Assembly: GCA_963783575.1 (NCBI GenBank)
Contig: CAWAOD010000011.1
Coordinates: 128,001-192,000 of the forward strand
DNA from: an uncultured Spirochaetota bacterium
GTDB lineage: Bacteria; Spirochaetota; Brevinematia; Brevinematales; JAOACQ01
Reading direction: 5' to 3'
DNA length: 64,000 bases
In this document: positions 49,122 to 54,151 of the stretch, piece by piece
Layout: every line of letters starts with the position of its first letter
Numbering within the stretch: position 1 is the stretch's first letter
Notes under the pieces: model-generated
What the model was told of the DNA's origin: nothing
The model's input: the letters and a program-made list of their open reading frames with translations, nothing else
Database searches by the model: none
Program-made: the position numbers and the translations under genes

Positions 49122-50353
49122 TCAATGATCAAAACTATCCGCTTTGAAGAGATCGGGAAAAAGCTTTGTCCAGGCAAGAACCACAGCTATAGTACCGATC
49201 CCTCCGATTACTACGGAGGGTATGGTTCCAAACCAGGCGGCCGTGATTCCGGATTCAAATTCTCCAAGCTGGTTGGACGTTCCTATAAAGAGAGAATTAA
49301 CAGCGCTCACCCTTCCCCTCATATTATCAGGAGTCTTAATCTGAACCAGTGTTTGTCTTATTACAACGCTGATTACGTCAGCGCCTCCCAGAACAGCAAG
49401 CGATGCAATAGACAGGATAAATGACCTCGAAAGCGCAAAAATTAGAGTGGCAATTCCGAAAATAATAACCGCGGTAAACATAGAACGCCCTATATGCCTA
49501 CGAATGGGTTTTCTTGACAGATAGAGCGATATAAGGAGAGCCCCTGCTGCTGGAGCGGCTCTTAAAAGCCCAATCCCCAGGGGCCGGTTGAGAGAATATC
49601 CCGCGCGTAAATCGGCAACAAAGCTGTTGCCCCTCCGAGCAAAACCGCGAAAAGGTCTAAGGAGATTGCACCTAGAATAACAGGTCTGTTAAAAATGAAA
49701 TGTATGCCTCCGAATAAAGCCATATAGCTGAAAGGTTCTTTATTTGCGTGTTTTAGTACCAAATGAATCCGGCTTGTTAGAAAACAAGAAGTCAAATATA
49801 AAAGGCAAATGATTGAATAGATCGTTAATGGGCCGAAAGTATAAAGAATTCCACCCAGTGCTGGACCGATAATTGACGCTGTCTGAAATGCCGACGAGGA
49901 AAGTGCTGCGGCCCGCGGAAAACTTTTAGCCGGCACAATCCCGGGCAGAATCGCCTGCATCGACGGTCCCTCGAAGGCCCTTGCCGCGCCTAAAAAGGTC
50001 AGAACTATTAATATGATTTCAGTATTGAGCCAGCCTGAAAAACTGCCTGCGGCAAGAATAAATAATCCCATGCCTTCCACAGCCTGGCAAACAAGAATTA
50101 TTGACCGCCTGTTGAAACGGTCCGCTGTATGGCCGATTAAAAGTGTTAGAATGAACATGGGCAGGAATTGTACAAGACCTACCATACCGAGGATAAAGGC
50201 GCTTCCTGTAATTGCGTATATCTGCCAGCCCACAGCAACGGCGGTCATCTGAGATGCGAGAGAGGCGGCAGTTCTTACAGTCAATAAAAAAACGAAAGAG
50301 CTGTTTCGGGCCAGGGATTCATCGAACTGCCCGCTTTCTGAAGATTTATTCAT
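49122..50353 (-). pseudogene. MFS transporter (EntS/MFS_3-like), -1 frameshift near 49565
   Basis: GHTADRFNRR, LDLFAVLLGGATALLP; one added base restores GLG(F/L)LRAAPAAG; RGRVSAVN. Confidence 0.85.
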
Positions 50354-51997: not shown

Positions 51998-52534
51998 CTA
52001 TTGGTCAGCCTGCCGGACTTTTATCAAATTGGAGAGATTAAATCCGTTGCTTACCGCCGAATCCAGGAGAAATTGGTATACAGAATCATCGAGTTGTGGT
52101 GTTCGGCTGAGAATCCATAGATAATCCTTAGTGGCACTGGTGACCATTGCATACTGATAATTTGTGCGATCGAGCTCAAAAACAATATAATCACTGCCAA
52201 ACCATAGAAAAAAGCTTACAAAAAGTTTTGAGGGGAGTTTCTGATCCTGTACCCTCGCGTTTCCGTGCGCACTTGAACGCTTTTCGCTTTTAATACCTTC
52301 ATTCAGAACGTCCACCTGCCCGTTATTCTTTAAAGTATATGTGGCAGTGACATAATTAAGTCCTTCTTCGAAAGATGTGGGCAGCCTTGCGATCTCGTAC
52401 CATTTTCCCATATACTTATTCACATCAAAATTATCTACCGGTTTAATATCCGCAGTACTTTTGTTTTCAGCCGGCAGTGCGGAGAACGCGCAAAAAACCA
52501 TTGAAAACAATAAAACAGATTTTTTTGTGAACAT
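51998..52534 (-). CDS. blc: Bacterial lipocalin
   Basis: FDVNKYMGKWYEIARL, TATYTL, YLWILSRTP. ATG at 52534 after AGGAG. Confidence 0.9.
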   Translation of the reverse strand: MFTKKSVLLFSMVFCAFSALPAENKSTADIKPVDNFDVNKYMGKWYEIARLPTSFEEGLNYVTATYTLKNNGQVDVLNEGIKSEKRSSAHGNARVQDQKLPSKLFVSFFLWFGSDYIVFELDRTNYQYAMVTSATKDYLWILSRTPQLDDSVYQFLLDSAVSNGFNLSNLIKVRQADQ

Positions 52535-52573
52535 ACATTCTCCTATGTAATTTGTCAAGTTTTATTTTAAGAT

Positions 52574-53573
52574 TCAAGCCTCAGATTTCAGATTCAACAA
52601 CTTATAATATACTTCCACAATAATTTTTCTCGCTACTGCAATGATCGCTTTTTGTTTTCCTCTTCTTGTTCGAATATTCTCATAAAACGATTTCATTTCT
52701 TTATCATATCTCACACGAACCCAGGCTGCTTGTACTATGACCCTTAAAAAAGCACCGTCTACTTTTCGTGTAATTTGACCATTTGTTCCTTTTCCGTCAC
52801 TTTCACTAACTCTTGGTGCTAATCCCATATATGATACAAATTTTTTTGAGGTACTAAAGCGGTCTATATTGCCTACCTTCGTTATGATGTATGCGCCGGT
52901 TGTTGTGCCTATTCCCGTTAATTCTTTAATCTCATTATATCCGGGTCTCTTTATGCTTAAGGCTTCTGTTTCTTTATCCAGTACCTTAATGTCTTCTTTG
53001 AGATTTTCTAACATAACATACATCTGGATTACGGCTCTCTTTATACTCTCAGGTATGTTTTGTTCTTTGACCCAGTTTGTGTTCTTTTCAAAATTGTTGA
53101 ACATTTTGTCTCCGGTTTTAATCCCCCAATACTCCATCATCGCTATTATCTTTGTCTTATAGCTTTTCTTATTGCTAACCATTTCTTCCCTCACAGATAA
53201 TAATCCTCTTATTTCAGCGTCTTCGTCGCTTCTTATCTGACAGGTACTTAGCTCTTCTTTTTCAAATCTTTGTAATATAATCGCCATTCTTTCTGCATCT
53301 TCCTTGTCTGTTTTCCATTAATCTTTTTAAATCAATAGTATTGAAAATAACCGCATCTTTTGCTTTATCTTTTAACCGTTTGATTAAATCCCATGTCCAG
53401 TTTGTCGATTCAATCCCGATTATCGTTTCTTTGTCAATCTCTTTCTCAAATTCCGCTAATTCTTTTTCATTTCTCTCATATTGCTTGATTGATTTTTTAC
53501 CGTTTTCTATAATAATGCAAACGGTAATTTGCTTTTTGTGGATATCAATTCCGATCCACTTTTTTGCGTCCAT
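52574..53573 (-). pseudogene. IS110-family DEDD recombinase, frameshifted near 53315
   Basis: IGIDIHK, IGIES, KTDKEDA (DEDD); GIG, RFSTSKKFVSYMGLAPRVSESDG (Tnp serine), KAIIAVARK. Small deletion just before KTD. Confidence 0.88.
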
Positions 53574-53629
53574 CGTTTTCCTCCCTAATTTATTTGGGAG
53601 GCCTGAATCTTTTAGTGGTATATTAATCC

Positions 53630-53794
53630 GGTTGAAAAATTACCATACTCCAATACGAGGTTTATCCTCAAAATGGTGGTTCGGACAAGGATTCGATCAT
53701 ACTCCTAACGGGGTTTATCCCCACAAATTGATTCGATCTTTGTCCTATTCAGAGTCCTCATCTATTTTGATGCGGGCTCTTTTATTTTTCAACC
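53630..53794 (-). ncRNA. Predicted IS110 bridge-RNA-like structured RNA (~165 nt)
   Basis: Starts ~7 nt after the -10. Closed by a perfect 11-bp stem (GGTTGAAAAAT / ATTTTTCAACC); contains a 5' hairpin and two related loop domains, each with a GGAG segment. Confidence 0.6.
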
Positions 53795-53814
53795 TTTTTT
53801 ATCATACCACCTCC

Positions 53815-53985
53815 TTATGCTTTTTCAGGGAACCACGGGAAAAATAGCGGTTTACTTTTTTTGTATTCCTCGAAATCTGCCCTTCCGGCGTATTTCTTTT
53901 CCAGAAGCGGTACACCGGATACAAACAACAGGAGAAATGTTATGGTTAAAGGGCTTATAATTGATATCCATCCATATCGGGAAGA
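53815..53985 (-). pseudogene. 3' remnant of a DUF1295 (steroid 5-alpha-reductase-like) membrane protein
   Basis: [27 protein letters not shown]...FEEYKK...FFPWFP is the characteristic C-terminus; the 5' part is absent. Confidence 0.7.
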
Positions 53986-54151
53986 AGCACATAAAATAAG
54001 TATAGACATATTCTTAAGATTCGTCAACAGAAAAAATTATTCCGGAAATAACTTTTCGCCATGAATGAGTAATAAAAGGCCGTCAAATTTCATTTTGACT
54101 TTTCCTATGATCAGGATTATAATTTTCATGGATATAAAGGAGGGCATTTAT

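Follow-up and report, generated by a model that had tools for sequence, protein, structure and literature searches.

The locus analysed here raises the question of how a mobile element can lie between two genes, directly in front of a start codon, and leave the downstream gene with a ribosome-binding site. The window, i.e. the whole stretch of 64,000 nt that was analysed from the genome of an uncultured Spirochaetota bacterium (hereafter G000), contains such an element, with a Shine-Dalgarno (SD) pentamer at each of its ends (Table 1). Reading its sequence together with that of its copies and relatives, we consider it probable, with good confidence, that this is an IS110-family element whose bridge RNA is programmed for ribosome-binding sites. 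A paper by Doran of 1997 is reportedly entitled 'IS900 targets translation initiation signals...'.

Table 1. Features of the element and of its host genes in the window (SD, Shine-Dalgarno)
Feature	Position	Strand	Remarks
IS110-family element, including both SD pentamers	52540..53815	minus	six copies in the genome, 98-100% identical, same ends
Left-junction SD pentamer	53811..53815	minus	probably three target-derived bases plus AG core at 53812-53811 (core placed from relatives)
SD pentamer at the right end, contributed by the element	52540..52544	minus	blc ATG lies 5 nt further on
Gene for a lipocalin (blc, 178 aa), behind the rebuilt SD	51998..52534	minus	same start in the congener G285
DUF1295 reading frame, upstream of the element	53815..54027	minus	adjoins blc, with no element, in the congener G285
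-35 hexamer of the predicted circle-junction promoter	52553..52558	minus	perfect consensus; computed on joined ends
Extended -10 of the same promoter	53801..53809	minus	TG plus hexamer 53806-53801; computed on joined ends
DEDD/Tnp20 recombinase pseudogene	52574..53573	minus	frame shifted by the loss of 11 bp between 53315 and 53314
Predicted bridge RNA (basal stem, 5′ stem-loop, target loop, donor loop)	53630..53795	minus	fold plus consensus pairs
Predicted target-binding loop	53683..53745	minus	3′-side guide 53708-53702, 5′ side 53732-53723
Predicted donor-binding loop	53641..53680	minus	pairing read by eye
Hairpin covering the SD of the transposase	53580..53601	minus	two-sided changes in relatives in 3/6 pairs
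Mini-ORF of 7 codons	53782..53805	minus	ATG inside the -10, 5 nt behind the left SD; from sequence

Both junctions were re-read in the sequence exactly as the initial annotation had given them, and its assignment to the IS110 family was borne out by the PF01548 (DEDD) and PF02371 domains, by the fixed ends and by a left end of the bridge-RNA type. The element is 1276 bp long in the window copy and 1287 bp long in the undeleted copies, with noncoding ends of about 240 nt (left) and about 35 nt (right), the long one being upstream of the transposase gene. The left SD pentamer overlaps the stop codon of the DUF1295 frame, and the blc ATG, at 52534, is downstream of the element. No base-exact empty site was found for the window copy, since the DUF1295-blc gap of G285 is about 77 nt long and different. 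Elsewhere in the window, a transporter-like reading frame at 49122-50353 (minus strand) appears to be split into 263 aa and 119 aa.

The genome contains six copies of the element, with identical ends in all of them. In the window copy the 11-bp deletion, which was absent from the initial annotation, splits the two Pfam domains, which are whole in the copy on C9 (G000:C9), the only one with a whole transposase, of 336 aa. In a protein search the transposase matched the structures of IS621 and ISCro4 (E about 8e-7). The deletion is present in two of the six copies, one of which is also interrupted by a second element; nonsense codons are found in two copies, and a D to N change in the second acidic motif in one. 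Altogether, a deletion, a stop or a catalytic-motif change was observed in 5/6 copies (among them those on C11, C14, C16 and C12), the copies being about 99% alike and the substitutions among them being mostly G>A or C>T. On the evidence of its reading frame, the copy in the window is inactive and looks like a dead passenger, and the C9 copy, acting in trans, could still move the element. The interrupting element, in the C12 copy, is a 2.5-kb multi-copy one (L005, G000:C12:19699-22235) that we take to be IS21-like from its two ORFs; 11 copies of it have both ends, mostly with 5-bp duplications. Another IS110-family element, only distantly related, is present three times in the genome (G000:C16:220241-221673, C5:69222-70654 and C13:279733-281162); it has a non-SD target, and one of its copies is 1 kb from an SD-targeting copy.

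As regards target choice, in 6/6 copies the SD pentamer is followed by an ATG, which is 5, 6, 7, 6, 5 and 5 nt past it, respectively. These ATGs open reading frames of 151-474 codons in the direction of the transposase, so that host gene and transposase have the same sense in all the six copies, and three of the six downstream products have Pfam matches (lipocalin, nitroreductase and hexapeptide repeat). The initial annotation had pointed to the flanks of the other copies as the place in which different ends, or targets unrelated to the SD and to gene starts, might come to light; instead, the ends are the same in 6/6 copies and every target is an SD before a gene start. It had also claimed that donor and target share a longer motif, reaching from the SD to the ATG, and this can be maintained only in part: the full match exists in one copy of the six, that of the window, and the ATG is at the donor spacing in 3/6.

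As a background we considered all the 6536 sites of the pentamer in the genome, 19% of which are followed by any ATG and 12.5% by a gene-start-like one. The fraction with an ATG is 43% for the 2180 pentamers outside ORFs and 60% for the 988 of them that have AT-rich flanks. On this last model the value of 6/6 has a p of 0.045, and the count of 37/41 pooled over five genomes (see below) a p of about 1.5e-5, where the background is that of G000 only and the elements are related to each other. The IS21-like element is in ORFs in 3 out of 11 cases, versus 75% for random positions, and therefore selection or an AT preference is at work. Hence we ascribe the ATG link mainly to an SD guide, AT-rich flanks and the loss of gene-breaking insertions; nevertheless, the ATG excess goes beyond selection and AT-rich flanks and leaves a residue, to which a reading of the start codon may contribute.

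The same target is found in homologues, i.e. in relatives having a transposase identity of 25-86%. The closest proteins, which include Brevinematia/Brevinematales records, are 44-87% identical, and at four loci (L024, L025, L009 and L011) the ends are built in the same way and the right end is followed by an ATG at 5-6 nt. Distant elements, with no more than 25% identity to the window protein, also target the SD in G285, G153b, G240 and G205. Considering as positive any right flank with an ATG at 4-8 nt, we counted 6/6 in G000, 10/10 in G285, 4/8 in G153b, 5/5 in G240 and 12/12 in G205, hence an ATG behind 37 of the 41 right ends; only short ORFs (3-38 codons) start from 4 of these 37 ATGs. 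For G285, 12 left ends were found, two of them without a right end in the locus, and the flanks scored were 11 at the left and 10 at the right; the variant-end loci L252 (G240) and L248 (G205) are outside the right-flank count. We also kept out of the pooled count G067, with an ATG at 5-9 nt in 5/6 sites, of which neither the transposase nor the RNA was seen, as well as G164 (ATG 0/2, with a different guide) and other singletons with no ATG. In contrast, a group with the same right-end pentamer and another guide, from four other genomes, has an ATG in 0/29 cases; we assume that this group is Leptospira IS1533-like.

Four of the G285 sites (L120, L127, L131 and L132) have a G right after the pentamer and a spacer of 7, the others having one of 5-6, which may reflect SD geometry. 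G153 carries two different SD-targeting elements (L112 and L118) that share their first 15 bases. In two of the ten G285 sites a matching empty orthologous site exists in G000, with the pentamer present once. A plasmid relative from Tardibacter has a target that matches its guide at 7/7 positions and an ATG 7 nt on. In the contigs of two public runs the element ends at the same bases with new flanks, and the right-end contig has an ATG 6 nt on.

In a tree of 35 proteins, which leaves the branching order open and contains no named ISfinder reference, the SD-targeting elements fall into two groups (support 100/100 and 91/90), next to which stands the non-SD group (100/99). The G285-type protein belongs to a large population (4242 clusters at E <= 1e-60), for a handful of which the targets were checked. 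In the metagenome scan close relatives were found at only 3 of 80 loci; in viral contigs, none of 17 pattern matches had a transposase match, and the protein scan of these contigs was empty. The pattern matches L105, L126, probably L128, L311 were host genes and were dropped, and L133 and L134 were chance right-end matches.

The presence of the pentamer at both ends, as the junctions had been marked in the initial annotation, would suggest a 5-bp target-site duplication or a 5-bp core, and in fact it is at both ends in 6/6 copies of G000 and single in the empty sites. We nevertheless regard this reading as very improbable, the least probable of those considered here, on the basis of the relatives: in G240, 5/6 left junctions differ from the right end in the three bases before the AG, and in G156 all the six left junctions share only the AG with it, while the right end is fixed in each element. 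As these junctions differ before the AG, the core common to donor and target is most likely 2 bp long (AG) and does not comprise the whole pentamer, and the three bases before it most likely come from the target at the left and from the element at the right. The short shared core that had been proposed is kept, probably reduced to 2 bp. Since relatives with non-SD targets have an SD-like right end too, the 'regeneration of the SD' may predate SD targeting. The sub-terminal inverted repeat is of 3 bp (perfect) in this element and of 6-10 bp, with a 7 + 3 geometry, in G205, G240, G285 and G153b (by eye).

What could direct the element to these sites is suggested by its left end, which is predicted to encode a bridge RNA. 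The fold of 53580-53795 has a z of -5.17, with 0/200 shuffles as good, and 8 of 51 consensus pairs show two-sided changes across 7 sequences. A covariance model built from these RNAs also finds those of G285, G044, G153b and G205; it gave no match among the distant metagenome loci searched, and the predicted RNA has no match in Rfam. In both loops the 3′ side repeats, in the same sense, the DNA to the left of the AG, and the 5′ side is complementary to the DNA to its right. Precisely, the 3′ guide of the target loop is a same-sense copy of the SD with the AG core at its end, and its 5′ side is U/A-rich; in the donor loop the 5′ side is complementary to the left end (first 5 nt), and the 3′ side (53654-53648) is the same as the right end except for one mismatch. 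By eye, the 5′ side of the donor loop tracks the left end of the element through four variants.

We scored the left flanks of each element against the 3′ guides, and the own guide was the best one for G285 (4.73 out of 5), G153b (4.67), G240 (4.33), G205 (4.80) and G156 (4.00); guide and target vary together in five elements out of six. The remaining one is that of G000, whose flanks scored 3.50 with the own guide versus 4.33 with the G285 guide, and therefore only a specificity for the pentamer (5 nt) is shown for it. In the case of the 5′ guide a rigid fit was obtained only for the non-SD element of G156 (5.69 out of 8), and the fit of the window element to its six right flanks was no better than that to gene-start pentamers generally (p 0.15-0.42).

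Target and donor guides are near copies of each other in this element (repeats D5 and D8), which is compatible with SD targeting as a by-product: the element would attack lookalikes of its donor end, through the donor loop or by half-match recombination (the available part of bioRxiv 2026.08.31.748434 reports half-match insertion by IS621), and selection would clear the intragenic insertions, as the depletion of the IS21-like element from ORFs (3/11 versus 75%) also indicates. We consider it improbable, as the group with the same right end hits 0/29 ATG sites and follows its own target guide, and as G240 and G205 share the donor end, yet their targets follow their differing target guides (in 5/6 and 8/10 left flanks, respectively). 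These elements offer a natural control, in which the right end is the same and SD and non-SD targets switch with the target loop.

A different question is whether SD and start codon are recognised jointly, the ATG being read by the 5′-side guide or by the protein at a flexible distance of 5-7 nt. Besides the ATG excess left over by the model of selection and AT-rich flanks, this would account for G240, in which the spacer is 5 at all the 5 scored sites and the anti-ATG of the guide fits with a one-base shift (5.40 out of 8), and for the anti-ATG triplet seen at the loop edge in several closer relatives. However, the guide of the window element has no anti-ATG triplet and an ATG is nonetheless present at 6/6 sites; moreover, the matrix of right guides is not diagonal for SD-type elements (the G240 sites score 5.90 with the G205 guide versus 5.40 with their own), and the spacers of G205 range from 5 to 7. 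We judge such a joint reading rather unlikely. The claim that this element aims at the SD and the start codon thus holds for its first half, since the SD is spelled by the predicted RNA, but a reading of the ATG by the RNA of this element is not supported: its predicted RNA demonstrably spells the SD but no start codon. A broader and equally doubtful scenario is that of one bridge-recombinase lineage, with IS1111-type guide order and upstream RNA, retuned several times to SD variants and recognising SD and ATG at a flexible 5-7 nt by means of a bulge-tolerant guide or of the protein; if true, it would be a natural system for insertion before any gene, unbroken, and would rely on the promoters of the host in order to be excised.

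The initial annotation had further predicted a promoter at the circle junction, and on the joined ends we obtained a consensus -35, a 17-nt spacer, a -10 and a TG in the extended position. In the contigs of four public runs, which cover 7-10 of 30 bins and give evidence neither way, no joined-end sequence was found. An outward hybrid promoter at the right junction was set aside, as its start would lie beyond the ATG. The mini-ORF near the left end stops before the loops of the bridge RNA, and similar short ones are apparent in relatives (by eye); it could shed ribosomes, or be due to chance or a by-product of the -10.

Returning to an element programmed for ribosome-binding sites, the mechanism that we propose, by analogy with known systems, is the following. 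The ends would join into a circle, in which the junction promoter would drive the bridge RNA; the target loop carrying the SD would then direct insertion at a ribosome-binding site, with recombination at the AG. An insertion in sense behind a host SD would place the element under the host promoter. The downstream gene would regain an SD at the original spacing because the right end of the element has the same pentamer, and host transcription could pass through because no terminator-like site was found inside the element. In this way the host gene would survive and the element would gain read-through transcription, which the excision of IS621 requires according to the accessible part of PMC13626964. 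The hairpin over the SD of the transposase may limit expression from such host-driven transcripts. This would be a safe-harbour strategy: a genome offers potential sites in the thousands, all of them would be transcribed, and the end that the element brings along would repair each of them. The element would also be a natural recombinase of low specificity that preserves operons.

SD targeting (IS900), the bridge-RNA mechanism (since 2024) and junction promoters were already established. In our literature search, which covered main texts and a minority of the subscription papers, no paper tied a bridge RNA to SD targets; the target tables in the supplements of PMC11208160 and PMC11187229 may list such elements. 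The link between the old IS900 observation and the bridge-RNA mechanism is of interest. IS900, a 1451-bp IS110-family element of Mycobacterium avium subsp. paratuberculosis, has a target motif that, in reverse complement, consists of an SD followed by six bases and an ATG, and 51 of its 58 insertions are outside coding sequences, as reported in the available text of PMC8141618. Going by this published description of IS900, the window element shares with it a target made of SD, spacer and ATG. In IS900, however, the SD-ATG motif is opposite to the transposase strand and feeds the antisense hed ORF, whereas here the sense is the same in 6/6 copies. Unlike the element-long hed, the antisense ORF found here covers only 53341-53847 (plus strand), i.e. 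the left end and the 5′ part of the transposase gene, with 168 codons (178 at C9).

As for IS621 and ISEc21, in so far as they are described in the accessible parts of PMC11208160, PMC11187229 and PMC13626964, the element has DEDD and Tnp20 domains, a long left end with a 5′ stem-loop and two loops (the bridge RNA of IS621, in the accessible part of PMC11208160, has a 5′ stem-loop and two internal loops), a predicted junction promoter and a 2-bp core. Unlike theirs, its core is AG when read along the strand of the transposase (CT along the opposite one), and its target is an SD and not a REP. With respect to ISEc21, as far as PMC11187229 describes it, the guide order within each loop is reversed, the guide pairing with the top strand being 5′ of that pairing with the bottom strand; this is clearest in G156, in which both guides fit (4.00/5 and 5.69/8). 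The same order, top-strand-pairing guide first, characterises the seekRNAs of the IS1111 group (ISEc11, ISKpn4 and ISPa11) in the accessible part of PMC11187229, and the ends of the relatives show, by eye, the 7 + 3 bp extensions outside the sub-terminal inverted repeat that are found in this group. In contrast to the IS1111 group as described there, the RNA is upstream of the transposase, a position that is rarely found there (e.g. in ISMtsp17), and the inverted repeat, a perfect 3 bp in this element and 6-10 bp among the relatives, is shorter than the usual 11-13 bp. The element thus belongs to the broad IS110 family and is predicted to work like IS621 and ISEc11, and it fits neither subgroup on all features, which makes it a test case for how the order of the guides and the position of the RNA have evolved between the two groups (IS110 and IS1111). 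What is distinct in it, as read from the sequence, is the sense orientation and an IS1111-type guide order in a predicted upstream RNA.
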